From an uncultured Pelolinea sp. (GTDB lineage: Bacteria; Chloroflexota; Anaerolineae; Anaerolineales; Anaerolineaceae): a stretch of DNA of 64,000 bases. A model generated the notes under the pieces. The model ran no database searches. It was not told the DNA's origin and saw nothing but the letters and a program-made list of their open reading frames with translations. The translations under genes were made by a program, and so were the position numbers. The stretch is taken from positions 392,885-456,884 of the forward strand of contig CAZTCV010000001.1 of assembly GCA_964612815.1 (NCBI GenBank). The letters run 5' to 3'. Within the stretch, counting starts at the first letter, position 1. Each line of letters starts with the position of its first letter. This document shows positions 8,313 through 29,972 of the stretch, in pieces.

Positions 8313-11171
8313 ATGGCTGCTGATTATTCAATCCAGGTATTAGGCGGGCTTTCAATCATTGACAGCAGCGGTGAGCTGATCGAACTTTCATCACGCAAGG
8401 CGGAAGCGATCATTGTCTATTTGCTATACTCAGACAAGCCATCGGTAGAACGCGAAGAGCTGGCGACCCTATTCTGGGCGGATATGCCGGAATCCAACGC
8501 GCTGACGAACCTGCGGGTAACACTGGCAGGCATCAAAAAGCAATGCGGGGATGTATTGATGGTGACGCGGCGGCGGATATCAATCCACCCGGATATTGTG
8601 ATCACAAGTGACCGGAAAGCACTGGAAGAGCGGATGGATGCCGCGCTGGCAGACGGGCAGGATAAGAAAGAAATGCCACTGGACCAAGCGCAGGCATTAT
8701 CCAGAAAGATGGAATTGTATCGCGGAGATTTTCTGCAAGGATTTTTCATCCGTAATGCCATCGCTTTTGAGGATTGGGCTGCTTATGAAAGGGAATCACT
8801 GCGAAGGCGGATCATTGACGTTAGCCAGATGCTGATCCATACCTATAAGAAGAACCGCATGCTGCGCGAGGGAATTGAAGCGGCAAACCAGCTGCTGTAT
8901 ATCGACTCTTTCAATGACGCTGCATACCAGTGGCTGATCGAGCTATACGCCCTGAATGGAGAACGGGACAAGGCGCTGGAGAAATATACGGATTATTGTC
9001 AATTCCTGGACGAGGAAATTGGCGTTGAACCCACGGAGGAGGTGGCGGCGCTGGCAGAAGCGATACGCGACGGGAGCCTGGCGCCAGAAACGCCAACGGT
9101 CATCAGCGTGGAAAAAAGCGCGCTGCCGGTGCCGAATAATATCCCAATGGAATTATCTCCTTTCTTTGGGCGGCGGGCAGAGCTGGCGCAGCTGCGGGAT
9201 TATTTACATAACCCGCACCTGCGGCTGGTGACGATGATTGGGCAAGGCGGCACGGGAAAAACGCGGCTGGCGATTGAAGCAGCACGGCAAAACCTGCGGC
9301 TATTTCCGGATGGCGTGTGGTTTGTGAAACTTGAAGGGGTGGTCTCGGCGGACCTGGTGCTGCCGGAGATCTATAAGGTGCTTGGGATCACCTATCCGCA
9401 GCGCGAGAAAGCGCAGGATGGGCTGGTTGAATATATGAACGGGCACCATATTCTGATGGTGCTGGATAATTTTGAGCAACTGCTGGATGCGAGCGCGATC
9501 ATCGCAGATGTGATCCAGCGCACAGAGAACTCCAAAGTGATCGTTACCTCGCGCGAGATGACGGGACTGCCAGAAGAGACGAACATGTACCTGGATGGTC
9601 TGGATGGGGGGCGTGAAACGATCCAAAAAGAAAAGCGCAGCGCGGAAAACCTTTCTGACGCAGGAAGGATGTTTGTGGAACGGGCAAAGCGGATCTTGCC
9701 GGAGTTCCAACCCAAGGAGAAAGATGTGACGCTGATCGAAGCGATCTGCGACCTGGTGGCTCGGCTGCCGCTAGGGATCGAGCTGGCAGCGGGGGGAATC
9801 AAGAATAAATCCCTGCAGGCCCTGCATGACCACATCGCGCAGGACATTATGACACTTGAGAGTGACCAACCCGAACTGCCAGAACGGCAGCGCAGCCTGA
9901 TGTCGGTGTTTAACACCTTCTGGGCGCAGCTGGCAGAGGACGAGCAGATGATGATCTGCCGCCTATCGGCATTTTGCGGGGTGGTGACACAGGACGCAGC
10001 CAGACAGGTGGCGGGCGTATCAGTGTTCTTCCTGAGCAGCCTGGTATCGCGCGGGTTCCTGAAGCGGGTGGGATCGTATGGCTACCGGGCACACTCAATG
10101 CACCGCCAGTATGTCCGCAAGCAATTGAAAGAGAATCCGAAAGAGTATCAAGAGGTCTCAAGCAAACACCGCGATTATTATTTTGATATGTTGCAGCGGA
10201 TCGTGCGTTCACTGCGCGACAGTCCGCAGAAGGGGATGCTGGATGAGCTGGAAGAAGAATTGTGCAATCTGCGATTGGCATTACATTTCACGATCGAGAG
10301 CGGTGAGAAACAGAAAGCGCTGACATTGTGTGAATTGCTGATGCCATTTTGGAAGATACGCGGATATTACCAGGAAGGGTATCACTGGCTGGACCTGGTG
10401 TTCGCGATGGAGGGAGAGGCAAACCCGGTGATGGAATCTTCTGCATTATGCGCTGCAGCAAAGCTGGTGAGCGTATTGGGCGACCACGCGACGGCCGAAG
10501 CATACAGCCGGAAGAGCTTGCAGATCGCCACTGAGACTGGCGACCAGCACGGCATCGCGCGGGCGCTGAATTCGCTGGGAGCCGCGCTGGCAGAAAAGGG
10601 AGAACCAAAGCAAGCAGAAGAGATCTATGGTGAAAGCCTGGAAATTTACCGCAACCTGCGGGTGCAGCAGGCGATCGCCGGGACGCTGGTGAACCTGGCA
10701 CATATGGAAATTAAAAGCGGGAAAACCAATAATGCGAGCGCGATGCTGGATGAAGCAATGCAATCATTTAAGTTGGTTGGTGATTCTGTGGGGGTGACGC
10801 ATGTGCTGCTGGTGGCAGCGCGAATCGCATTAATGCAGGATGACCACGAAAAAGCAATGGTGACGCTGCGGGAAGCGCTGGAGAAGGCATGGAATCTATC
10901 GGCGCGTGAAGAATTGATGCGCGCGTATGTTCTGCTGGCACAGGCGTATGCCCAGAAGGGGTCATGGCCTGAGAGCACACAGCTGCTGGCGGTGGTACGG
11001 CTGGCGGTCAGGCGGCATAAATTGCCGCTGCCGGCGAGTGAGGAGCGGATCGAAAAAGCGACTGAAGAACAGGTGAAAAAAGCGATGGGAGAGAAGGCGT
11101 TCCTGGCTGCCTGGCGGAGCGGTGAACTGGCGGGGGAAGCGGGGATTGTCAATCAAATTTTACAAAAATGA
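8313..11171 (+). CDS. SARP/BTAD-family transcriptional regulator with NB-ARC-type ATPase and TPR repeats (AfsR-like)
   Basis: Winged-helix plus BTAD N-terminus (LYRGDFLQGF), Walker A GQGGTGKTRLA, and C-terminal TPR-like repeats (ALNSLGAALAEKGEPKQAEEIY…). 952 aa. Confidence 0.85.
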   Translation: MAADYSIQVLGGLSIIDSSGELIELSSRKAEAIIVYLLYSDKPSVEREELATLFWADMPESNALTNLRVTLAGIKKQCGDVLMVTRRRISIHPDIVITSDRKALEERMDAALADGQDKKEMPLDQAQALSRKMELYRGDFLQGFFIRNAIAFEDWAAYERESLRRRIIDVSQMLIHTYKKNRMLREGIEAANQLLYIDSFNDAAYQWLIELYALNGERDKALEKYTDYCQFLDEEIGVEPTEEVAALAEAIRDGSLAPETPTVISVEKSALPVPNNIPMELSPFFGRRAELAQLRDYLHNPHLRLVTMIGQGGTGKTRLAIEAARQNLRLFPDGVWFVKLEGVVSADLVLPEIYKVLGITYPQREKAQDGLVEYMNGHHILMVLDNFEQLLDASAIIADVIQRTENSKVIVTSREMTGLPEETNMYLDGLDGGRETIQKEKRSAENLSDAGRMFVERAKRILPEFQPKEKDVTLIEAICDLVARLPLGIELAAGGIKNKSLQALHDHIAQDIMTLESDQPELPERQRSLMSVFNTFWAQLAEDEQMMICRLSAFCGVVTQDAARQVAGVSVFFLSSLVSRGFLKRVGSYGYRAHSMHRQYVRKQLKENPKEYQEVSSKHRDYYFDMLQRIVRSLRDSPQKGMLDELEEELCNLRLALHFTIESGEKQKALTLCELLMPFWKIRGYYQEGYHWLDLVFAMEGEANPVMESSALCAAAKLVSVLGDHATAEAYSRKSLQIATETGDQHGIARALNSLGAALAEKGEPKQAEEIYGESLEIYRNLRVQQAIAGTLVNLAHMEIKSGKTNNASAMLDEAMQSFKLVGDSVGVTHVLLVAARIALMQDDHEKAMVTLREALEKAWNLSAREELMRAYVLLAQAYAQKGSWPESTQLLAVVRLAVRRHKLPLPASEERIEKATEEQVKKAMGEKAFLAAWRSGELAGEAGIVNQILQK

Positions 11172-14170: not shown

Positions 14171-14554
14171 TTATCTTTTCTTCCGGTTTCTTGTTTGATG
14201 ATTTGCATCAAGAGCAAGTATATAACAACGCCTAGTAGAATTATCAAGCCCAAATAATAGCCTATATGGAATATTTCCATAATCAACTCGGTAAACTTTG
14301 CTTTCTACCCATCCAAGTTTTTGACAAAGTTCTTTATCACTTTTATTCCCATTAGGATCAATTTGTTGTATTCCACCTTTTGCCTGAATGGCTTTATTCA
14401 ATTCACGAATATTTGGAGATTCAATAATTTCATATAAAAATTTCTTTAATTTACTAACAAAAGCTTTATTACCGTAAAAGGCATTTGGGTCAAATTCTTT
14501 ATCTTTATGTTTTGAAAAGCAAGGAAGATACCCTTTCGTTTCCTTACCACTCAT
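14171..14554 (-). CDS. RelE/ParE-superfamily-like toxin (putative)
   Basis: C-terminal …VYRVDYGNIPYRLLFGLDNSTRRCYILALDANHQT fits the RelE/HigB/Gp49-type pattern (YRxxF…x-ILxxxxH). The ATG at 14552-14554 overlaps the upstream stop by 11 nt; the listed ORF starts at TTG 14590. Confidence 0.5.
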   Translation of the reverse strand: MSGKETKGYLPCFSKHKDKEFDPNAFYGNKAFVSKLKKFLYEIIESPNIRELNKAIQAKGGIQQIDPNGNKSDKELCQKLGWVESKVYRVDYGNIPYRLLFGLDNSTRRCYILALDANHQTRNRKKR

Positions 14555-15020
14555 CGTGTAATTTAACAGATCCAAGATTAGAAGGGTCAATTACTGTATT
14601 TGGGCGGTTGATGTATGCTTCATGCCAAGGCCCATTGGGATCATGTGTCTTTTCAACAAGGTATGAAGCAGAATATTTTGAATATTTTTCCCATATTTCA
14701 TCAAGAAATTTCTGAATTTTATCTGTAATGCCGCTATAGTCAATTTCAACATCAAAAGATGAGATTGTATAAGCACCACAACCTCTTAACCATTGATAAA
14801 CATTATAAACAACCGGGCCTAATTCCCACGCTTCAATTGAATCAATGAATAAAGGCTCATTGTTTTTCTTATAGAATTCAGCTTGGGCAAAATACAACAT
14901 CTTCTGAATTTTTAAATTTGTTAGGTCATTTTCAGATTCAGAATCCGATTTCTTGATAAAGTAAGAAGCTATTTGTTTTGCTTGATAAGATTTCATAAGA
15001 CCTCCAAGATGATTACACAT
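14544..15020 (-). CDS. Panacea (DUF4065, SocA/GepA-like) domain protein, putative antitoxin
   Basis: KIQKMLYFAQAEFYKKNNEPLFIDSIEAWELGPVVYNVY matches the DUF4065 core (KLQKLLYxAQ…AWxxGPV). Confidence 0.7.
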   Translation of the reverse strand: MCNHLGGLMKSYQAKQIASYFIKKSDSESENDLTNLKIQKMLYFAQAEFYKKNNEPLFIDSIEAWELGPVVYNVYQWLRGCGAYTISSFDVEIDYSGITDKIQKFLDEIWEKYSKYSASYLVEKTHDPNGPWHEAYINRPNTVIDPSNLGSVKLHDEW

Positions 15021-15073
15021 CTCAAGCGTTTATTATAACAACTGTCAATGCAATTATCAAGTTATTTATAGTA

Positions 15074-15973
15074 TTAATGTTCTATCAGAATGTTTTCATC
15101 ATCATAGAATTCAAAAGATCGTTGTTTGCTTTCCATCCGATTAAAATTGTCTTTGAACCTTCTTCTACTAGGGCTAATTTGTAGTAATGCTGTTATTTTG
15201 CCTATTCGATTTCTCAGTATCTGAATCCCCTTTTCCTCATTTAGAAATTGATGTAGCCTCATCTTTCTTGCCCCTTTTTCATCCGCAGGATTTAATTCGT
15301 TTAATTTTTCTAATACAAATCCATCTTCAATTGGTTTATAAATATACTGGTTTATAAACCTCCCGTAATATTTTGGCCGTTTTTGTGGTGTAGTTGTTGG
15401 GTTGTTGTAAATTCGATCTAATTCCTCAAAAAACTCGTCTGGGAATTCTTTCATCCATTGTCTTGCTTCTTCAATGATATAACTCTGAACCAATAAGCGG
15501 AGCGCATCTTTTTTACGATATTTTTGATAGCCTGTTGCCTCGTCAATAACTGCGATCACACCTGTTTTAGCAAAGGCATTGACGATTATTTGCGCTTTTT
15601 TGGCAAGAGGTAATTGTGATTTTAGAAGAACATCTCCGGCATTATTTGCTTCTATATACATATTACATATATCAATAAGATCTTCTGCCTCGAATCCGTG
15701 TGCTTCTCTGGCATTGTACTGAAATTTGATAATACCTTGGTCCCATATTTCGCCTTTATACTTTTCTGGTACGAAAGGCTGAAGGTTTGGGGCACTTAAA
15801 TATCGTTCTAAACCACCTTTTTTGTTGCCCGTTAATGCACCGACCACTTCTCTTTGAAAAAATACCCGCCTTTCATCACTTAGAACCGCACATTTAATTG
15901 TGATTTCCCCAATTTTTATTTCTCCAACATATTTTGCTTCAAGGCCACTCCGTGATACAGATATATTTTTCAC
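15074..15973 (-). CDS. P63C domain-containing phage-derived protein
   Basis: IGEITIKCAVLSDERRVFFQREV…, GVIAVIDEATGYQKYRKKDAL and FPDEFFEEL are hallmark P63C (phage Mx8 p63 C-terminal) motifs. Confidence 0.7.
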   Translation of the reverse strand: MKNISVSRSGLEAKYVGEIKIGEITIKCAVLSDERRVFFQREVVGALTGNKKGGLERYLSAPNLQPFVPEKYKGEIWDQGIIKFQYNAREAHGFEAEDLIDICNMYIEANNAGDVLLKSQLPLAKKAQIIVNAFAKTGVIAVIDEATGYQKYRKKDALRLLVQSYIIEEARQWMKEFPDEFFEELDRIYNNPTTTPQKRPKYYGRFINQYIYKPIEDGFVLEKLNELNPADEKGARKMRLHQFLNEEKGIQILRNRIGKITALLQISPSRRRFKDNFNRMESKQRSFEFYDDENILIEH

Positions 15974-16203
15974 AATTAACTCCTAATCCAATACTAATTA
16001 CTAATCCAAATACTTTTTTTATCACCCCAATAGATATATTAATAAAAAACCTCAATTTTGTATAAATTACCAATTTGATGTGCGATCACCTCAATTTTCT
16101 CTTATCGTCCCACTCTATTGAATTGTTTCAAGATTGGTTTGCTTATCATCTCCAGCTATGTCTTGAATACCTCAAGTTTTCTTCATTTTGAGGATTGTTG
16201 TTT

Positions 16204-16596
16204 TTATACCAACGTAGTTTCATCAGATTCAACATTGCTAAATTCGTGGATAGCTTGTCTAATCTGTGTTGAAATTCTCAATGCAGTATCTTTTGTTACT
16301 TGGATTTCTTTACCAAGTTGGCGGGCAGAAATTCCCTTTTCAGCCTTTAGAATAATCGAGATGGCTAAAAACCACTTTTGTAGAGGAATTTTCGTGCCAT
16401 GAAAGATTGTGCCAACCGTTACTCTAAAGGAAGTGTTACAGGTATTGCAATGATAGCGATTCTCTTTCTGCATTAAGGTGCAACTTTTAGAATAGCAATA
16501 AGGACAAATAGGTTTGTTTCCCCACTTTACTGCTTCGAGGTGATTTAAGCAATCTTTTTGTGTCGGGTATTTCTCAAAGACTTCATTGATATTCAT
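16204..16596 (-). pseudogene. IS1595-family transposase N-terminal fragment (Zn-ribbon plus HTH only; DDE domain missing)
   Basis: CPYCYS…YHCNTCNTSFRVTVGTIFHGTKIPLQKWFLAISI is the IS1595 Zn-ribbon/HTH. The ORF stops at …VESDETTLV, exactly where the DDE domain (VExDETYIGG) normally begins. Only 230 nt of AT-rich DNA follow. Confidence 0.7.
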
Positions 16597-20728: not shown

Positions 20729-23700
20729 TCAGGGGTTGACAACGCGGGTTTGGACCGCCCTGACAGCGACGCGCCATTGATATTGATCGGTTGATTCCTG
20801 ATATCCTTTGCAGGTGATCAAGGTGAGATTGGCGTAGGGCTGGTCATCAAGGACTGACAGATCGGCAGGGTCAACCCAATGATCGACATCTCGCACCTCA
20901 TAGATATAATCCTGACCCCAGGCATGCAGGATGATGAGATCACCCCAGCGCAAGTTTTCGAGGTTGACAAATGGGCCTGGCTGGCCGTTGGCATCATACA
21001 CATGCGCGGTGATGGCCGTGTTACCCACCCAGGTAGGAAAGGCCGTGCCCTCGAGCCATCCGGCCTGGCCAAACAGCCAGGAAATATCCCATGATCCGCG
21101 ACCATCAGAGGGAATCCCAACGACAGGAAGCTGGACACCCAGAGAAGGGATCTCCAATGACAGATTGGAAAAGTCTGAATACTGATAATTGAATGGCTGC
21201 ACAGGCAGGACGGTGGTTTTACCGGGCGCGAAACCTGTTTCTGGCAGATCGGACGGACGGATATCCCAGGCCATACGCGCCTGTTGGACATTCAACTCGC
21301 CCGGATCATCCACATCCCCATCCCCATTGCGGTCTATGCTGATCGAGGCGATATTGTTTGCGTAGCGTGTACCATCATCAAGCAGAACATTGAAAGTGAT
21401 CAGCATGGCATTCAGCGCAAGATCGGGATCGGTCACGCCAAAATCCGGACCGATCGAGCCTTCCCAAACGATGCGCCCGAGCGGATAATCGATGGTTGGA
21501 CCCTCGTAATAACAGTAAGTGGTTGAAGACGCTGGAGACGATGTGCAGCTAACGCCCCGGGAGGTTGAGCCGATGGGAGCACCAGCAGGCAGGGGGTAGC
21601 CGCTATCAATGCCGTTATCATAGAAGGTTGTGTTATTGGGTATCGGGTCGGACACAACCGCATTGACGCCGACGATATTGGTATCGTTGATCCAAACCAT
21701 GTTCCATTCCAGAATTGGGCGGCCAGCCGCGTCAAAATATTTTTCACCATATGGCGGGTCAAATATTTCAGCGCCAAAATTGGATGGGGTCGGGTCCTGA
21801 TTGTCCGCAGGACTGCCGTTGCCATCGGGATCAGGATCATCACCATTTTGTGAGAGATCGCTCACCGGCCCTTCAATGGGATGGACCGCACTAGCGAGGA
21901 CAGAATTTTCATGCGGGCCGCTGGATGTGGGAATCACACGCACAACGATCGTGAGTGATTTTTCTTCAAACGCGGCCAATGTGTTCCCGGCTGCAAGTAA
22001 ATCCTGGTCCAAATTCCCATCGAAAGAATCATTGACGGAGAGATCCAAACTTTCGATCGATTCAACGGTGAAAGCTGCTGGTGATGGATAGGCCGCATTG
22101 AGATCGTCCTGGGCCTGTAGGTCCTGCAGGGTAACATTGCCATAGTTCTTTAGCCGAATGGTGTAGGTGACATCATAGGTACCAGCACTGACCTTTTCGA
22201 TGCGCATCATTTCTTTCGCGGCGCCGATAACCGGCACCTGGTCAGCAAAAATGGTTTCTTCTGCTGTGTTTGAGGTGGTAGTATCGCCATCGGGATCTCT
22301 TGCAGTCAGGCTGGCACGGTTGGTGATACTTCCATAATCGAGATCTTCCAGGGTGACATTATCAGTTCCGGTACAGGTGAATTGCGCAGATGGCGCGAGC
22401 GATGCCGGATAGGAACAGGATACAGAAGCACGATCATCAGAGAGGACAAAAGGCGCAGTGAGGGTGGATGTGCCGGTATTGGTGATGGTATAGGTGTAAT
22501 TGACAACCTGATCAAACGTGTCATAAATCTCGGACGCAGCAGATTTCTCGATGGTGAGCAGATTGAGGAGGTCTGTGTCGGTTGCGATGTTATTATCGTA
22601 ATCCGGATCGATCAGTCCGGCTGGCGGAACAACGGTCGCTGAATTGATGATGCTGGTCTGCGCGTCCATTGCGATGGCGGCCGTGATGGTGTATGTCACA
22701 TTGACACCAGCGGGAATTGATACAGTGTCGGCAATGTTACCTGTGCCGGAGGCAGTACAGGAAGCGCCAGCGCCCGGGGTGCAGGCCCAGGAGGCGTCTG
22801 TGAGGGATGAAGGCAGGTTGTCATACACTGACGCGTTGATGACGTTTGCCGGGCCATTGTTTGATACAACAACAGTGTAAGTAACCGTTTCACCACGATC
22901 TACTGCTGATACGCCATCATCTTTTGTGACTGAAAGGTCTGCTGCCATATTGACGGTGAGGGTGGCTGTATTGGATGCGACCCCCGTACCGCCATTGGTT
23001 GAAGAAACCGGATCTGTGGTGTTATTAAACACACCGGCATCGGCGGTAACTGGTACAGTGATGACGCAAGCGCCACCGACAGGGATCGTGCCACCGCTGA
23101 ATGAGAGCGTTGTGTCTGCCGGTGACGGGGCAAAAGCCGGAGATCCGCAACCGGAGATTGAAACAGAACCCGCATCCGATACGCGCATACCGGCAGGGAA
23201 AGAATCTGAAAATGCCACACCGACCAGCTCGGTTGTGTTCGCGAGCGGATTTCGAATAGTGATGGTGAGGGTTGTGCTCTCACCCTGGGTCAATGTGGCG
23301 GGAGAAAATGATTTGGTGATGGTGGGGGCGGAAACGACATTAAGTGTATCCTGCGCTGTGTTACCCGTACCGGCATTGCTTGAGGTGACCGCATTGCTGG
23401 TGTTGAGATGGCTTCCGGGCGTTGAGGACGTTACAACCAGGGAAACTGTACAACTGCCTTCAGGAATGATGGACCCATTGGCCAAGGTGAGGCGGTTATT
23501 ACCACTATCATAAGTTACCTGCCCGCCGCACTGGTTTGGCTGAGGCGCATAGGCCGGGGTGACAGCAGCCGGAAGGTTATCTACAAACCCGACACCGGTC
23601 AGTGAAACCACATTGGGATTGGTGATCGTGAATGTGAGGGTTGAGAGCCCGCCGGTTTGGATGGTGTCCGCTGAAAACTCCTTTGCGATGACAGGCGCAA

Positions 23701-26700
23701 TCACTTTATAAACCGTGACGCTATCCTGATTCGAAGTAACAAGATCTCCACCTGAAGCCGCATCCGAGGCCGTGGCGGTGGCGAGGTTGGTGACCAAACC
23801 AGCTGTTACATCGCCCGCAGTGACGGTGTAATTCTGGCTGCATTCAACCACGCCGCCGGGCTGGATGGAGGTAGCAGATCCACAATTCAAAGGATTAAGG
23901 AAATGATCATCGGTGACGGAGAATGGCGCAAATAATGGAACGCTGCCGGCATTGGTCAGTGTATAGGTGTAGCGGATGGTGTTTCCCGCATTGAGGAAGG
24001 ACAGGGTGGTTGTGGATTTTCTTAAGTTCAAAGCCGCCAGTTTTACTGTCACGCTGCTTTCATTTGAAGTGACCAGGTTACTGGATTCATCCCGGGCAGA
24101 AGCGGTGGCAAGGTTGGTGACTGATTTTGCTGTGAAGTCTGCAGCGGTTACTGTGTAATCGGCAGAGCACGCGATGGAGGCCCCTGGATTGAGGTCTGCA
24201 GCAGCGCTACAGGTAATATCTGCGGGGAAGCGGTTATCTGAGACAAGGAAAGGTGCATACAGGACGGCGTCACCGGTGTTGGTGAGCTGGTAATTGTATG
24301 TGATCAGATCGCCAACTTGCTTGTAGTTAGGCGTATTTGTTGATTTAAGCAGCGATAATCCGACGCCATTTACTTCCAGTGTACTTGTTGCTGATCCACC
24401 GCTGCCGCCATTGGAGGAGGTGACCGCATTGGAGGTATTCAAGTAGGACCCAGCATTTGGCGCTGTGACTTCTATTTCCACTGTACAAGACGCACCGACC
24501 GCGATCGTTCCGCCAGAAAGTGACACAGAATTGAGTGTGCTTGATACTGTACCACCGCATTGGGAGGGGAGTGGTTCGGAAGCCCGCAGAACCCCGGTGG
24601 GAAAAATATCACTGAACGCAACGCCAGCCAAAGCAAGCGTGTTCTCAGCCGGGTTAGTCAGTGTAAAAGTCAGGACAGACACACCACCGGCTGTGATGGG
24701 ATTGGGAGTGAATGATTTTTCGATCAGAGGCGGGGCAATTGCCCTTAGAGTCGCTGAAGCTGTATTGCCTGTTCCGCCATTTGTTGAAGACACAGAATCA
24801 CTGGTGTTTTCGAAATCGCCCCCTGCATCTGTTTTAACCGAGATAGTCACCTGGCATGAACTGTTGGCAGCGATCGTGCCGGCTGTGAGGGAGACTGAGT
24901 CCACAGTACTTGAAACGCTGCCACCGCATTGTGAAACGTTTGGAATACTGGCGCGCGTCATGCCTGATGGGAAGGTATCGGTGAAAGCGACACCGGAGAG
25001 GGGCGCATTATTAGGGTTGGTGATCGTAAAGGTTAGCGCAGATGACTGCCCAAGCCGGACCGGGTTAGGTGAAAAAGCTTTGGTGATCTGAGGAGGGTTG
25101 AGGGATTCCTCGACGATGAGCGTATCACAGGTGGGGTCTGCGTTGGTGGCATCCTGCTCGCTATGCAGCTCTCCGGCAGCGATACAGTTCTGATAACTGC
25201 CTGCCGCGGCGGCAACGACATCGACAAGGATGGTGCACTCCTGGCCCGCAGGCAGAACACCATCAGCGAGCGTAAATGTGGCCTCAGTATAAGTTACTGT
25301 GCCTCCGCACTGCACTGATTCTGGCGGGGTTGGGATGGTCAGGCCGGCAGGGAGGGTATCTATAAACCCTAACCCGCTCAGATCGACATTGCCCGTGTTT
25401 TTTATCACAACGGCGACCTGTGAGGTGTTTCCCCCGCCTGATTCGACAGGATTGGTGGTGAAATATTTTGTGAGACTGGCACCGGCTAAATTGGTGAGGG
25501 TGGCGGAAGCGCTTTGCGGATTGTAGGCACCGTTGGCAGATGTAATTCCTGAGGCAGGGATCGTATTCGTCAGGTTTCCGCTGACATCCATTGTGACTTT
25601 AATGGATAATTCGCAATTACTGTTGGCGCTGATGCTGCCACCGCTAAAGGAGAAGGAATTCTGCCCCGCGACTGCGGTGATCGTACCGCCACAGGTGCCG
25701 GTTGATGCCTGGGCGGGCGAAGCAATATGCATGCCTCCCAAGTTTTCCGGATCTGTACTTTGCGGCAGATCGTCGGTAAACGCGATACCATTAATCGCGG
25801 AATTATTCGGATTTGTGAGGCGAATGGTCATGGTGGATGCGGCTCCACCAAATACTGTGAGAGGATTGAATGTTTTCACGACTTGAATGAGTAATTCGTT
25901 TACGGATAAGGTCGCATCGGCACGGGCAGGATTGGTGATAGTAATACCCAAACCCTGTAGAACACCAGAAACCTGACCGATGTTAATACGGTTGAGATGA
26001 TTTCCAACCGTGATCCCTTTGACATCCACATTTACAGTGCAAATACCCGGGACACTACCGATCTGTGAAGGAATTTTTGCATCTGTCATTGAGATGGATG
26101 TGCCGAGCGATGGCGCAGTGATGATGCCATCGACGCAGGTGGTGGAGATGTTGGGAGTATCCGCGATGACGATTCCGGCCGGGAGATTATCGGTCAGAGA
26201 AACATTTTCCAGCTGGCGGTCATTGGTATTCTGCAACACGATTGAAAGGGTGGAAATGCCCTGAATATTGACAGATCCGGGGAAGAAAGATTTGCTGACG
26301 GAGATACCGCTGACGGTTAATGTACGGGAAAAGCTTGAAGATGTGGTCTGGTTCTGGTCGTTGGTGATGTTGGCAGGGGAAATGATGTTGTTATAGGTTC
26401 CTGCCGTGTCGGATGTGACGTATACATACAATATGCATTGCCTGCCAGCAGCAATCGAACCGCCCGAATAGGTTACGATCGTGTCTCCCGCAGAAGGCGC
26501 GAAAGTACCACCGAGACAATTCGCATTCTTTGTGGCTGCAGGAGGAGAAGCGACCCTGACACCGGCCGGCAGCGCGTCGGTGATGCTGAAGTTGGTGAGG
26601 TTTTGATCGGCAGGCGCTGTAATATTGATGGAAAGACGCGACTCCCCTTCCACAGGAATTGTGCTGGGACTGAAATTCTTCGAGGCAGAAACGCCTTTGC

Positions 26701-28042
26701 CCTGACCGTAGACAGCGAGATTGCTTGTTACGGCGGTGACATTGGTCGCGCCCTGAACGGTTTCCAGAGCACCTGCAGGAATGGTGTTGGTAAAACTACC
26801 GGGGATGGACCCGGTTACGGTGGCAGTGATGGTGCATGTTCCCGGACTTGTAGGGCTGCCGGAAGGGACGGTGCCTCCTACGAGGGTAAGGGAGGTGGCT
26901 GTGTATGAAACAGTCCCGCCGCACTGGGCCAATTCGGGCGGAGAAAAAATTGACAACCCAGCCGGGAGGTTATCAGTGAATCCTACGCCGGTATAATCGG
27001 AGGCGGATGGGTTCTGCAATGTGATGGTGAGCGTGGTGGTGCCGCCGGCCTCGATCGAAGTGGGTGAAAAGGCTTTCATCATCCCGATCGATTGAAAATT
27101 GATGGGGGCTGAAGCTGCTGCCTGATTGGTAACCCCCTGATTGGATGTGATCGCGAGGGCGGGGATGGTGTTCACATATACGCCTGTTGTCAGCGATGTA
27201 ATGTTCAGGTTGACCACGCAGGTCGTATTGGCGGGCACATTGGCCTGGTTGATGGTGACCGCATTTTGGCCCGCGGCGAGCGGGGCTCCGCCCGGGCCGG
27301 TGATGGTTGCACTCGGGCCACAATTCGAGAAAGTGACCGTATTATTTGCAACGGTAATCCCGGAAGGCAGATTATCAGTCACCGAGACGCCAGAAAGTGG
27401 GTAATTAAGGTCATTGTTGCGGATGCGAATCGATAACACCGAATTCAGCCCAACCCACTGGGTATTTGGCGAAAAAGTTTTACTGAGGGATGGCGGCTGA
27501 ATCGCGTTGACCTGCAGTGTGTGCGTTGCGGGCGTGGTGTTTGTGATCGAGAGCGTTCCGGAAGGGTCGGTCGATTTGAGATTATTGGCCGGGATGACGT
27601 TATCATGATTGCCGGGTGTGACAGAAGTAACATTGACCGTCACCGTACACACACCAGGATTATCCCCGACCTGTGCCGGCACTAATCCACCGATGAGGGA
27701 GAGGGTCTGGCCGATCATTGATACCGTACCTCCGCATGTGGAGACGGCGTTGGCGGGATTTGCAAATACTACACCTGCCGGAAGATTATCAACCCAGGCG
27801 GCTGGAACGGTTGAGAGGGTTAATGGAAAGACATTTGGGTTGTAGATATTGACACTTAAGACAGAGACGCCGCCAGCAGGAATGATATCTGGCGAGAATT
27901 GTTTATTCATCTGTGCCGGGAGACTTATTCCCTCATCAGCGCGCGCCGGAAGAGTTATGTTCGTAATCAAAGAAAGCGTTGCCAGAACGACAACGCAAAC
28001 CCGGTAAAGATGAAATTTCAATGAATTATCCTCTCTTCCCAC
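20729..28042 (-). CDS. giant (2437 aa) secreted surface protein: ~16 DUF11/TIGR01451-type Ig-like repeats, an LPETG motif and a C-terminal sortase catalytic domain
   Basis: Signal peptide, then repeated ~95 aa units (K-FSPNPI…LTFTITNP…GVAFTDxLPxG…QCGGTVS…C-V). LPETG is encoded at 21233-21247. The sortase motifs follow: LEIPSLGVQLPVVG, GNTAITAHV, NLTLITCKGY, WRVAVRAV. The start may instead be TTG 28021 behind GGAAGAGAGG. Confidence 0.9.
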   Translation of the reverse strand: MGREDNSLKFHLYRVCVVVLATLSLITNITLPARADEGISLPAQMNKQFSPDIIPAGGVSVLSVNIYNPNVFPLTLSTVPAAWVDNLPAGVVFANPANAVSTCGGTVSMIGQTLSLIGGLVPAQVGDNPGVCTVTVNVTSVTPGNHDNVIPANNLKSTDPSGTLSITNTTPATHTLQVNAIQPPSLSKTFSPNTQWVGLNSVLSIRIRNNDLNYPLSGVSVTDNLPSGITVANNTVTFSNCGPSATITGPGGAPLAAGQNAVTINQANVPANTTCVVNLNITSLTTGVYVNTIPALAITSNQGVTNQAAASAPINFQSIGMMKAFSPTSIEAGGTTTLTITLQNPSASDYTGVGFTDNLPAGLSIFSPPELAQCGGTVSYTATSLTLVGGTVPSGSPTSPGTCTITATVTGSIPGSFTNTIPAGALETVQGATNVTAVTSNLAVYGQGKGVSASKNFSPSTIPVEGESRLSINITAPADQNLTNFSITDALPAGVRVASPPAATKNANCLGGTFAPSAGDTIVTYSGGSIAAGRQCILYVYVTSDTAGTYNNIISPANITNDQNQTTSSSFSRTLTVSGISVSKSFFPGSVNIQGISTLSIVLQNTNDRQLENVSLTDNLPAGIVIADTPNISTTCVDGIITAPSLGTSISMTDAKIPSQIGSVPGICTVNVDVKGITVGNHLNRINIGQVSGVLQGLGITITNPARADATLSVNELLIQVVKTFNPLTVFGGAASTMTIRLTNPNNSAINGIAFTDDLPQSTDPENLGGMHIASPAQASTGTCGGTITAVAGQNSFSFSGGSISANSNCELSIKVTMDVSGNLTNTIPASGITSANGAYNPQSASATLTNLAGASLTKYFTTNPVESGGGNTSQVAVVIKNTGNVDLSGLGFIDTLPAGLTIPTPPESVQCGGTVTYTEATFTLADGVLPAGQECTILVDVVAAAAGSYQNCIAAGELHSEQDATNADPTCDTLIVEESLNPPQITKAFSPNPVRLGQSSALTFTITNPNNAPLSGVAFTDTFPSGMTRASIPNVSQCGGSVSSTVDSVSLTAGTIAANSSCQVTISVKTDAGGDFENTSDSVSSTNGGTGNTASATLRAIAPPLIEKSFTPNPITAGGVSVLTFTLTNPAENTLALAGVAFSDIFPTGVLRASEPLPSQCGGTVSSTLNSVSLSGGTIAVGASCTVEIEVTAPNAGSYLNTSNAVTSSNGGSGGSATSTLEVNGVGLSLLKSTNTPNYKQVGDLITYNYQLTNTGDAVLYAPFLVSDNRFPADITCSAAADLNPGASIACSADYTVTAADFTAKSVTNLATASARDESSNLVTSNESSVTVKLAALNLRKSTTTLSFLNAGNTIRYTYTLTNAGSVPLFAPFSVTDDHFLNPLNCGSATSIQPGGVVECSQNYTVTAGDVTAGLVTNLATATASDAASGGDLVTSNQDSVTVYKVIAPVIAKEFSADTIQTGGLSTLTFTITNPNVVSLTGVGFVDNLPAAVTPAYAPQPNQCGGQVTYDSGNNRLTLANGSIIPEGSCTVSLVVTSSTPGSHLNTSNAVTSSNAGTGNTAQDTLNVVSAPTITKSFSPATLTQGESTTLTITIRNPLANTTELVGVAFSDSFPAGMRVSDAGSVSISGCGSPAFAPSPADTTLSFSGGTIPVGGACVITVPVTADAGVFNNTTDPVSSTNGGTGVASNTATLTVNMAADLSVTKDDGVSAVDRGETVTYTVVVSNNGPANVINASVYDNLPSSLTDASWACTPGAGASCTASGTGNIADTVSIPAGVNVTYTITAAIAMDAQTSIINSATVVPPAGLIDPDYDNNIATDTDLLNLLTIEKSAASEIYDTFDQVVNYTYTITNTGTSTLTAPFVLSDDRASVSCSYPASLAPSAQFTCTGTDNVTLEDLDYGSITNRASLTARDPDGDTTTSNTAEETIFADQVPVIGAAKEMMRIEKVSAGTYDVTYTIRLKNYGNVTLQDLQAQDDLNAAYPSPAAFTVESIESLDLSVNDSFDGNLDQDLLAAGNTLAAFEEKSLTIVVRVIPTSSGPHENSVLASAVHPIEGPVSDLSQNGDDPDPDGNGSPADNQDPTPSNFGAEIFDPPYGEKYFDAAGRPILEWNMVWINDTNIVGVNAVVSDPIPNNTTFYDNGIDSGYPLPAGAPIGSTSRGVSCTSSPASSTTYCYYEGPTIDYPLGRIVWEGSIGPDFGVTDPDLALNAMLITFNVLLDDGTRYANNIASISIDRNGDGDVDDPGELNVQQARMAWDIRPSDLPETGFAPGKTTVLPVQPFNYQYSDFSNLSLEIPSLGVQLPVVGIPSDGRGSWDISWLFGQAGWLEGTAFPTWVGNTAITAHVYDANGQPGPFVNLENLRWGDLIILHAWGQDYIYEVRDVDHWVDPADLSVLDDQPYANLTLITCKGYQESTDQYQWRVAVRAVQTRVVNP

Positions 28043-28181
28043 AGCAATGATTTTCCTCTATATTAAAGAGATAATTATTTCTTTTTACATTATAGATTAT
28101 ATATGAACAAATTACGGATTTTTCTAATTGGAGTTGATGGGCAAGTACAATATAAAAAAACTCGATCAAGGAGCTTTATAT

Positions 28182-29972
28182 ATGACGCATTTATTGGTAA
28201 TCGGAAGCCCGTCACTGGATAAGATCCATATTGACGGCAAGACCCACCACGCGATGGGGGGCGCGGGGATGTACATGAGCATGGCAGCCAGACGGGCCGG
28301 GGTGGATGTGAGCATGTTTGGGCCAAAGCCTGACCCGATGCCTGACGCGCTGCAAGCGCTGGACCAACGGCTGGCGGAGTGGATCGGGCCGGCAATTGAC
28401 CCGGCGCTGGTGCCGCGCTTTGAGATATCGCATGATGGTGATATTGCTGATTACCTGGTGGCGAACATCGAAAGTGAACAGGAGATCGATCCGGACGGGT
28501 TCCCACAGTATCTTTCGAAATATGATGGTATTCACATTACCGCGATGGGCGACGCAGAAGTGCAGAAGGTGTTCCTGGATATGTGCCTGGCGCGGGGCGC
28601 GAAATTCATCTCGATCGGCACGTGGCGGCACAATGTGGAAGAACAGGCGGAGACAACGCGCTATCTGATCCGACATTCACAGGCATCTTTTATGAATGAG
28701 GAAGAAGCGATCACGCTGTTCGGGTCGATTGACGCGGCGGAGGTACATGCCGGACATACGCTATTCATCACGCTGGCGGACAAAGGCGCGCTGGTGATCC
28801 AGGGCAGCCACCGCAACCGCATAGCAGCAAAGGAGATAGCCGCCAAAGACCCGACCGGCGCAGGTGAAGCATTCTGCGGATCGGTTGTTGCCAACTTGCT
28901 GCTGGAAGAACACCCGGTGAAAGCAGCAATGCGCGCGGTGTTGCTGGCAGCGGAGAAGATCGAGGGGATCGGACCTGAGGCGCTGCTGCTGGATGCAGCC
29001 CCACCTGTGATCCCGCTGGACGCGCGCATCAGCCTGGACGCGGCGCAAATCGAGAAGATCGCCGCTGTGGTGAAGGATCTTTCCGATGCGGATCCATTTG
29101 GATTTGTGAGTGATTATCTACCGCCGGAGGGACACCCGGCCGCACTGAATTTCCTGTTTGCTGTGACGTTCCAGCAGTTCAGTTTCTGGACGGATAAGGA
29201 CGGAAAATATGAGGCACCGCTGATCGCGGAGATCGAAGGGGTAAGCCGTAAAGGATCGGCATATATGTATGCCGCATATAACCGCCTGATCGACCGTGAC
29301 CCGGATTTTTTCCTGCCAGCGCGGCAGGCGAAGGTGACGGCCGCGGAAATGAAGCATGTATTTCGCGCAGATGACGGCAGCGATCCGATGCCGGCATTGG
29401 ACCTGCATGTGGAGATGGCGAACGCGTATGGCCGAGATATGCTGGCGCTGGGGCTGACCCCGGCCATGTTTGTGGCAAAGGCAATGGGCGCAGAGAAACC
29501 GCTGAAGACATTTGTGGAGATGCTGGATCATGTGGGCGGGTACAAGGAAGACCCGATCCGCAAGAAAAGCAACCTGTTAGCGCTGAGCGTGAGCCAGCGG
29601 CCGGAGAAATTTTTGCGCTTTGGAGATGACGAGATAGTGGCGCCGGTGGTGGATTATCACTGTATGCGGGCGATCCTGCGCCAGGGGCTGGTGAATGTGC
29701 TGGATGAGGACCTGAAGAACAAGCTGGCACAGCGCATGCTACTGAGCGAGGATGAGGAATGGGCGATCCGTTTTGCGGGCTACCGCATCCAGGAGAAGGT
29801 TGAAGCGCTTTCCGGAAAACCGATCGGGGCGGTGGACTGGTTCTTTTTCAATTACACGCGCAGCCACTGCCCGGAGATGACGGACCCGGTGTGCGCGCAA
29901 TGCGCGGTGGATAAGGTGTGCATGAAACGCAAGGAAATGTTCCAGCCGGTGCTGAGAACGACGTATTATTAG
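28182..29972 (+). CDS. fusion protein: PfkB-family carbohydrate/nucleoside kinase (N-terminal) plus DUF2419/QNG1 queuosine-salvage domain (C-terminal)
   Basis: N-terminal LLVIGSPSLD and DPTGAGEAFCG (PfkB signatures). C-terminal FLFAVTFQQFSFWT, VVDYHCMRAILRQGLV, VDWFFFNYT and the ending …LRTTYY parallel human QNG1 (TLNFSFWS, FADYRLPQVL, LDYYLWDY, …RCIYY). Start set at ATG 28182 behind AAGGAG. Confidence 0.8.
   Translation: MTHLLVIGSPSLDKIHIDGKTHHAMGGAGMYMSMAARRAGVDVSMFGPKPDPMPDALQALDQRLAEWIGPAIDPALVPRFEISHDGDIADYLVANIESEQEIDPDGFPQYLSKYDGIHITAMGDAEVQKVFLDMCLARGAKFISIGTWRHNVEEQAETTRYLIRHSQASFMNEEEAITLFGSIDAAEVHAGHTLFITLADKGALVIQGSHRNRIAAKEIAAKDPTGAGEAFCGSVVANLLLEEHPVKAAMRAVLLAAEKIEGIGPEALLLDAAPPVIPLDARISLDAAQIEKIAAVVKDLSDADPFGFVSDYLPPEGHPAALNFLFAVTFQQFSFWTDKDGKYEAPLIAEIEGVSRKGSAYMYAAYNRLIDRDPDFFLPARQAKVTAAEMKHVFRADDGSDPMPALDLHVEMANAYGRDMLALGLTPAMFVAKAMGAEKPLKTFVEMLDHVGGYKEDPIRKKSNLLALSVSQRPEKFLRFGDDEIVAPVVDYHCMRAILRQGLVNVLDEDLKNKLAQRMLLSEDEEWAIRFAGYRIQEKVEALSGKPIGAVDWFFFNYTRSHCPEMTDPVCAQCAVDKVCMKRKEMFQPVLRTTYY

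Follow-up and report, generated by a model that had tools for sequence, protein, structure and literature searches.

Can a surface protein carry, in its own polypeptide chain, the enzyme that attaches it to the cell? In the standard picture of sorting, the sortase is a membrane-anchored enzyme with multiple turnovers, and a hydrophobic and charged tail keeps its substrates in the membrane. The gene addressed here, located on the minus strand at 20729-28042 of a 64,000-nucleotide stretch of DNA from an uncultured Pelolinea sp. (contig CAZTCV010000001.1; hereafter the window, whose numbering is used for this gene and its neighbours), encodes a secreted giant stalk protein of 2437 residues whose C-terminus is an LPETG-sortase cassette. 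From this sequence we infer, with a probability of roughly 60%, that the cassette is self-processing: LPET|G would be cleaved and the passenger handed over to an amine, most likely of the cell wall. An earlier note on the window, made from its letters, had already predicted self-cleavage at this site with transfer of the passenger. It is still a prediction, which the conservation of the motif, a tether of fixed length, the placement of the motif in an AlphaFold2 model and its correspondence to the lid of class C sortases and to the self-bound peptide of SrtE1 all favour.

The open reading frame is unbroken, running in a single frame of 2437 codons from a GTG start to a stop codon at 20729-20731, as given by the list of open reading frames and the translation. 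Its last part, the catalytic β-barrel (approximately residues 2295-2437; 20732-21160), terminates the protein and is matched by the Pfam model Sortase (PF04203) over residues 2296-2430 with E=4.3e-19, scoring 68.9 bits with the whole protein and 73.7 bits with the 223-residue tail against a cut-off of 26.6. For the last 223 residues, an AlphaFold2 prediction from a 107-sequence alignment has a mean predicted local distance difference test score (pLDDT) of 92 and a predicted template modelling score of 0.81. All 50 PDB matches listed by Foldseek for this model are sortases with probability 1.00, headed by the Streptomyces coelicolor class E enzyme SrtE1 (5cuw, E=2.5e-10) and followed by C. diphtheriae SrtA (5k9a), its lid mutant (6bwe) and A. 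oris SrtC-1 (2xwg). The eight-stranded β-barrel contains the complete triad: His2347 (codon CAT, 21002-21004, in NTAITAHV), Cys2411 (codon TGC, 20810-20812, in the TLxTC-type motif LTLITC) and Arg2424 (codon CGC, 20771-20773, the first arginine of WRVAVRAV, in QWRV, 13 residues past the cysteine). Profile, fold and triad place the tail domain in the sortase superfamily, with predicted activity on LPXTG. Reading the reverse complement returned the LPETG, histidine and cysteine codons exactly where the earlier note had placed them, and its description of a complete sortase domain at the end of the protein, with an arginine in WRVAVRAV, also held; both the profile scan and the structure prediction it had suggested gave the result it expected.

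No class could be assigned to this enzyme, since every NCBIfam model of classes A to F scored well under its cut-off. The best-scoring model, class F (NF033748), reached 45.5 bits with the tail and 40.4 with the whole protein against a cut-off of 166, followed by class E (NF033747) with 39.9 and 35.3 bits against 160. Class C (NF033745) scored 34.3 bits against 160; here LPETG takes the place of the DP[FWY] lid, and the C-terminal membrane helix of that class is missing. A phmmer comparison with class C sortases gave a best E-value of 6.6e-08, with alignments beginning at strand β1 (LEIPSLGV). Assignments to class F, E or C were all rejected.

We then considered how such a protein could be retained by the cell. 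No membrane helix was found in the last 200 residues, where the highest Kyte-Doolittle mean over 19 residues is 1.15, and the highest value among the 50 listed of 148 representative tails is 1.75. Likewise, no Gram_pos_anchor or other LPXTG-anchor model matched the 2437-residue protein at E<=0.01 in the Pfam and NCBIfam scans, and the chain ends only 26 residues past Cys2411. Only residues 15-33 of the protein are strongly hydrophobic (19-residue mean of 2.06), and they belong to the predicted Sec signal peptide (residues 1-35; 27938-28042), which has basic residues at R3, K9 and R14, the core VCVVVLATLSLI and, by inspection, a cleavage site at A-R-A|D; the N-termini of homologues are comparable. 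Of the canonical sorting signal (PF00746/TIGR01167) the protein has the pentapeptide (LPETG, 2266-2270), followed by 168 residues forming the sortase domain in place of the helix and positive tail. A membrane-anchored sortase, in turn, would have an anchor beside its catalytic domain, and here 2260 soluble passenger residues precede that domain. Substrate motif and enzyme are indeed one polypeptide lacking a C-terminal membrane anchor, as first noticed from the letters, and this lack of any other anchoring device (transmembrane helix, charged tail or anchor profile match) speaks for a self-processing cassette.

An obvious concern is that the fusion is not real. A frameshift, a chimeric assembly or a chance LPXTG could have joined two genes, and the family is not free of sequencing errors: at one locus, L050 (a Microflora Danica metagenome-assembled genome, 6858-10591), the gene is split, with a 1087-residue frame overlapping an out-of-frame 181-residue frame that starts just before LPSTGFAPN. 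That split is a frameshift, either a sequencing error or a pseudogene. For the gene in the window, however, such an origin is barely credible. Thirteen contigs assembled independently of one another, from ENA, Logan and NCBI data, encode the identical 2437-residue product, and its cluster at 90% identity has 10 members of 2329-2438 residues, automatically named "LPXTG-site transpeptidase (sortase) family protein" or "mucin-19" by IMG. The same architecture is found throughout the homologues: in a scan with one genome per species that returned 546 loci, the best 79, from different genomes, were taken for all locus-level analyses, and the fusion is present in 79/79 of them, as it is in the best 150 protein clusters. 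The refuting condition named in the earlier note, two genes joined by a frameshift or by assembly, was therefore checked and ruled out by the 13 contigs and by 335 homologues, in which the position-specific conservation of the motif also rejects a chance LPXTG.

The survey of public genomes for LPXTG-GFAPG-sortase fusions, which the earlier note had called for, revealed a large family. A search with the last 223 residues found 241 homologues, and a profile search covering 1.84 billion representative proteins (50% identity clusters) found at least 1677 clusters with an E-value no higher than 1e-30. Among the 150 best-scoring of these, the match ends no more than about 25 residues short of the C-terminus in every case, and protein lengths run from 346 to 6026 residues. 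The best 79 loci come from nearly exclusively Anaerolineae metagenome-assembled genomes, together with the cultured Ornatilinea apprima P3M-1, whose homologue (locus L017, 2603-10663) has 2686 residues and the motif LPLTGFAPGK, and in this sampling the family is essentially confined to the Anaerolineae (Chloroflexota). Three short contigs (1.9-3.8 kb; L018, L035 and L071) carry the labels of Methanomicrobiales, Desulfurococcales and Acidithiobacillus genomes; since they are short and 47-55% identical to Anaerolineae sequences, they look like contaminants introduced by binning and not like a true archaeal or proteobacterial occurrence. The passengers vary among members (DUF11, Big_5, SdrD_B, SpaA, FG-GAP and others), with a signal peptide in most full-length members. 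Judged by these architectures, the cassette behaves as a portable C-terminal sorting module: it consistently forms the very end of proteins that have a signal peptide and varied passengers, as would be expected of one.

To what extent is the motif itself conserved? We aligned 335 distinct homologous tails to the family profile. At the motif (L2266-G2270; 21233-21247, reverse complement CTGCCAGAAACAGGT), which is the single LPxTG of the protein and has its predicted scissile bond at T2269|G2270, the leucine is kept in 86% of tails (I, M or V in a further 9%), the proline in 99.7%, the threonine in 98.8% and the glycine in 100%, while the x position is free and accepts A, D, E, S, K, G and others. 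The residues that follow are also highly conserved (F 98.5%, A 93%, P 97%). For comparison, the catalytic histidine and cysteine are present in 100% of the tails (335/335 each) and the arginine in 99.7% (334/335); the triad is maintained across the whole set and catalysis is therefore under selection. In this alignment the conservation of LPxTG is on a par with that of the catalytic triad, and its free x is typical of genuine sorting signals. PxTGFAP without a sortase domain downstream was not found in 1.29 Mb of flanking Anaerolineae DNA. The paralogue at locus L073 carries a degenerate APAAGFAPG (alanine for threonine) with His, Cys and Arg intact, possibly a natural non-cleavable variant.

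The stretch that connects the motif to strand β1 (G2270 to approximately S2294; 21161-21235; GFAPGKTTVLPVQPFNYQYSDFSNL) had been described in the earlier note as a non-hydrophobic linker of about 25 residues. Non-hydrophobic it is, but the idea of a loose linker did not survive: from the alignments, the 24 residues after LPETG are a conserved segment of fixed length, an N-terminal extension of the sortase domain. Several of its positions are conserved, namely T(+11) in 89%, L(+13) in 80%, P(+14) in 82%, Q(+16) in 78% and Y(+22) in 77% of the sequences. The distance from the motif proline to the histidine is 76-81 residues, and exactly 79 in 66% of sequences; at the level of loci, an [LIV]PxTGF motif lies 70-75 residues ahead of the histidine motif in 79/79, and the frame ends 90-106 residues past the start of that motif, again in 79/79. 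Consistent with an ordered tether, pLDDT in the 223-residue model steps from 73 to 96 exactly at the start of LPETG and stays at 95-97 along the segment.

The spacing of these elements suggests where the motif would go. In the phmmer alignment to class C sortases the motif proline precedes β1 by ~29 residues and the histidine by 80, close to the place of the class C lid, whose DP[FWY] is found 72-73 residues before the histidine in group B Streptococcus SrtC1 and SrtC2, about 25 before β1 (PMC3493515). That lid sits in the groove for the sorting signal and overlays an LPAT peptide, with its proline at the position of the substrate proline (PMC3493515). In SrtE1, a tripeptide of the enzyme's own linker fills the groove in a substrate-like pose, ~22 disordered residues separating it from the domain (PMC5148588). 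The class C lid and the self-peptide of SrtE1 thus provide structural precedent for a chain that runs through the groove and then into β1. Aligned in this way, LPETG is at the position of these two elements, and the confidence of the model together with the spacing suggests that it would dock in its own groove.

The same position leads to a different hypothesis: an LPxTG that is never cleaved and acts as an autoinhibitory pseudo-substrate lid, leaving the attached sortase to work on other molecules or to await an activating signal. In its favour, the motif coincides in position with the lid of class C enzymes and the self-peptide of SrtE1, and the best structural matches include lid-bearing enzymes of class C type. 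We nevertheless consider it rather unlikely. Known lids are DP[FWY] and not a full cleavable LPxTG, and the retention of L, P, T and G with a varying x is what marks a genuine recognition motif. Furthermore, an uncleaved protein would have no way to stay on the cell, and there are no separate substrates with this motif in the 1.29 Mb.

The self-processing reading leads to the following cleavage and transfer scheme, with the C-terminal ~172 residues (LPxTG, ordered tether and sortase domain) acting as a self-contained autoprocessing cassette. The protein would be exported through Sec by its N-terminal signal peptide, the sortase domain emerging last and folding with its own LPETG in the substrate groove. 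Cys2411 would then attack the bond between T2269 and G2270, either within its own chain or in another copy, so that the ~227 kDa passenger (D36...DLPET) would be held on the enzyme as a thioester. An amine nucleophile, most likely a peptidoglycan stem peptide or lipid II, would resolve the thioester and fix the passenger covalently through its C-terminus. The sortase fragment (GFAPGK...) would be set free, each enzyme being used once. Mechanistically, the fusion would substitute both for the membrane anchor of the sortase and for the tail, hydrophobic and charged, by which a substrate is otherwise retained. The predicted fragment, G2270-P2437 (20732-21235), has 168 residues, 18.75 kDa and an N-terminus of GFAPGK; it contains two lysines, and Cys2411 is its single cysteine. 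As a speculation, its N-terminal glycine, held by the ordered tether, could favour religation, in which case the intact protein would be a latent and reversible thioester store.

Action could be in cis or in trans, and the acceptor is a putative one. The cell wall is the most parsimonious acceptor because the passengers have no common acceptor feature, and also because the C-terminus leaves the translocon last and would be near membrane and wall when the reaction starts. If water were to resolve the thioester instead, the cassette would be an autoprotease for self-release only, shedding the giant protein to the medium or to a matrix. Sortases do hydrolyse LPXTG when no nucleophile is present (PMC11561820), spontaneous cleavage has been reported (PMC2901362), and there is no membrane tether to take this enzyme to lipid II. 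This outcome seems unlikely to us on grounds of plausibility: a transpeptidase scaffold with a strict arginine and a leaving-group tether exceeds the needs of simple shedding, and stalk proteins made of isopeptide domains are typically attached to the cell (PMC12617251).

Several points weigh against self-processing followed by transfer to the wall. In a longer construct of 458 residues, modelled from a shallower alignment, pLDDT at the motif and tether falls to 78-85. The class C lids and the SrtE1 peptide are themselves N-terminal segments that occupy a groove without being cleaved (PMC3493515, PMC5148588). Lacking a membrane tether, the enzyme would have uncertain access to lipid II, and separate housekeeping sortases may exist elsewhere in these genomes.

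We looked for partners in the surrounding DNA. The window contains no second sortase and no further LPxTGF motif, and the neighbours of the gene are unrelated housekeeping genes (SIS, β-lactamase-family, PIG-L, EamA and PfkB/Q_salvage). In the 1.29 Mb of flanking Anaerolineae DNA, which is not a whole-genome census, no stand-alone sortase was found, only tandem paralogues. The window and this related DNA also yielded no frame with the canonical order of LPXTG, helix and charged tail. Clustering the flanking frames of the 79 loci revealed no conserved partner gene such as a membrane sortase or a small acceptor; the recurrent families are generic two-component and ABC-transporter genes, plus synteny within single clades. 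These negatives, too, favour a self-processing cassette.

The passenger (residues 36-2265; 21248-27937) consists of tandem Ig-like stalk domains. The Pfam scan identified about 24 isopeptide-type domains: 11 matched stretches of DUF7933 (E=1e-230), 8 of DUF11/CLIPPER (E=8e-62) and 5 of DUF7507/CLIPPER_2 (E=2e-59). A 2025 survey describes these three families as predicted intramolecular-isopeptide domains of fibrillar-adhesin stalks (PMC12617251). With tandem copies of DUF7933, CLIPPER and CLIPPER_2 after a signal peptide, the protein is, by its domain content, of the fibrillar-adhesin-like stalk type, its isopeptide bonds being predicted and its adhesive role putative. The mature passenger would extend from D36 to T2269 and comprise about 2234 residues (~227 kDa, with 32 lysines), to be read in place of the 2265-residue repeat region given in the earlier note.

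Directly N-terminal of LPETG lies a β-sandwich domain without annotation (approximately residues 2098-2260; 21263-21751), marked by FDPPYGEK, C...CYYEGP and DRNGDGDVDDPGE. It matches no Pfam family at E<=1. The 458-residue AlphaFold2 model predicts it to be all-β with pLDDT 85-98, and Foldseek with that model gave it no identity, as sortase matches dominated. We found 22 homologues of this domain, most of them with the sortase cassette downstream. The acidic DRNGDGDVDDPGE motif resembles a calcium-binding motif, and the domain also has a pair of cysteines. Other subfamilies carry a different domain before the motif (...SLPGDVSxPQSxYNxLSTERYYDP...) in place of the β-sandwich.

The composition of the passenger also bears on polymerisation, in which the acyl-enzyme would be attacked by a lysine or by the N-terminal amine of another copy or surface protein, giving pilus-like covalent fibres or a sheath. 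Anaerolineae are filamentous, the nearest sequence and structure matches of the enzyme are pilus-type class C sortases, and tandem paralogues with the same cassette adjoin the primary match in three loci (L046 10820-20497, L067 99-3191 and L073 11004-13730, in locus coordinates). However, passengers and N-termini differ widely, so that no universal pilin-like lysine motif is evident, and no partner gene is conserved in the 79 loci. Lysine is moreover scarce in the 2234-residue passenger, and many of its 32 lysines lie at domain starts, where isopeptide lysines are located (positions according to PMC12617251). Taken together we regard polymerisation as improbable.

How does this arrangement compare with known systems? 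With canonical LPXTG sorting by class A, E and F sortases it shares the Sec signal peptide, an LPxTG with free x, the His-Cys-Arg β-barrel and large Ig-like stalk passengers. The difference is that enzyme and substrate are here one chain, with neither an N-terminal anchor on the enzyme nor a helix and charged tail on the substrate, and the enzyme would be single-turnover if the proposed mechanism holds. In this respect the system recalls the C-terminal autoprocessing of Hedgehog/HINT proteins, where a single act in cis forms a thioester at the junction, the passenger goes to a nucleophile and the processing domain is discarded. The likeness is in logic only: Hedgehog proceeds by an N-to-S acyl shift with cholesterol as acceptor, and its fold is unrelated to that of sortases.

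Class C sortases, which rank with the best matches in both sequence and fold, also have an N-terminal extension before β1. Unlike the cassette, with its full LPxTG and giant passenger and no helix, they have a non-cleavable lid, a C-terminal membrane helix and separate pilins. S. coelicolor SrtE1 (PDB 5CUW), the best Foldseek match, likewise holds its own N-terminal linker peptide in the groove (PMC5148588); that peptide, AQA, is poorly conserved and not a sorting motif, and the enzyme is membrane-anchored, multi-turnover and specific for LAXTG.

Closest in working, and identical in the order of its parts, is an engineered system, STEPL (protein-LPETG-linker-SrtA-His), in which the fused sortase cuts at the LPETG of its own chain, joins the passenger to an amine that is supplied and is itself left behind (PMC11561820), a precedent in favour of self-processing. 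Spontaneous cleavage was seen with other sortase-LPXTG fusions, the Mao/BISOP self-cleaving tags (PMC2901362), and a sortase autocyclase is an engineered fusion as well (cited in PMC10804404). None of these artificial constructs was copied from nature; they join S. aureus SrtA through flexible Gly/Ser linkers, in contrast to the conserved and ordered tether found here. In the literature searched, which leaves most subscription journals outside its coverage, we found no natural LPXTG-sortase fusion described, only engineered systems and unrelated papers, in line with the earlier note, which was aware of no experimental characterisation. The isopeptide-domain survey scanned for sortase motifs in the last 50 residues only (PMC12617251) and would for this reason have missed the family, which is apparently undescribed.

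Extending these results to the whole class, we tentatively propose, at somewhat below an even chance, that the Anaerolineae use a natural auto-sortase: a portable, single-turnover module with which each surface protein would use and then discard its own sortase, anchoring itself in the absence of a membrane-bound sortase or a retention signal. This may be their main or only sortase-type route, with the tethered LPxTG as a functional counterpart, and possibly a relative, of the class C lid. If true, it would represent a second solution to surface anchoring, by a disposable cis-acting enzyme that is Hedgehog-like in logic, and it would explain how giant stalk proteins are attached in the Anaerolineae, whose envelope is poorly understood although they abound in digesters, sediments and activated sludge. 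It would also provide a hypothesis for the origin and role of the N-terminal lids and appendages of class C, class E and B. anthracis-type sortases. For protein engineering, the cassettes are possible self-ligating tags, a natural version of STEPL in which the tether has been shaped by evolution.

Around the gene, some neighbours deserve mention. Its divergent upstream neighbour (28128-29972, plus strand) appears to be a fusion, of ~600 residues, between a partial PfkB-type kinase domain and a Q_salvage (queuosine salvage) domain. On the minus strand, 14171-16596 holds a cluster of mobile-element or defence type amid the housekeeping genes, composed of Zn_ribbon_IS1595 (16204-16596), a P63C-domain protein (15074-15973), SocA_Panacea (~14544-14996) and an unannotated frame of 127 residues. 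Finally, 8313-11171 on the plus strand encodes a STAND-type NTPase regulator of 952 residues with BTAD, NB-ARC/AAA_16 and TPR domains, according to precomputed Pfam annotation of the identical contig.

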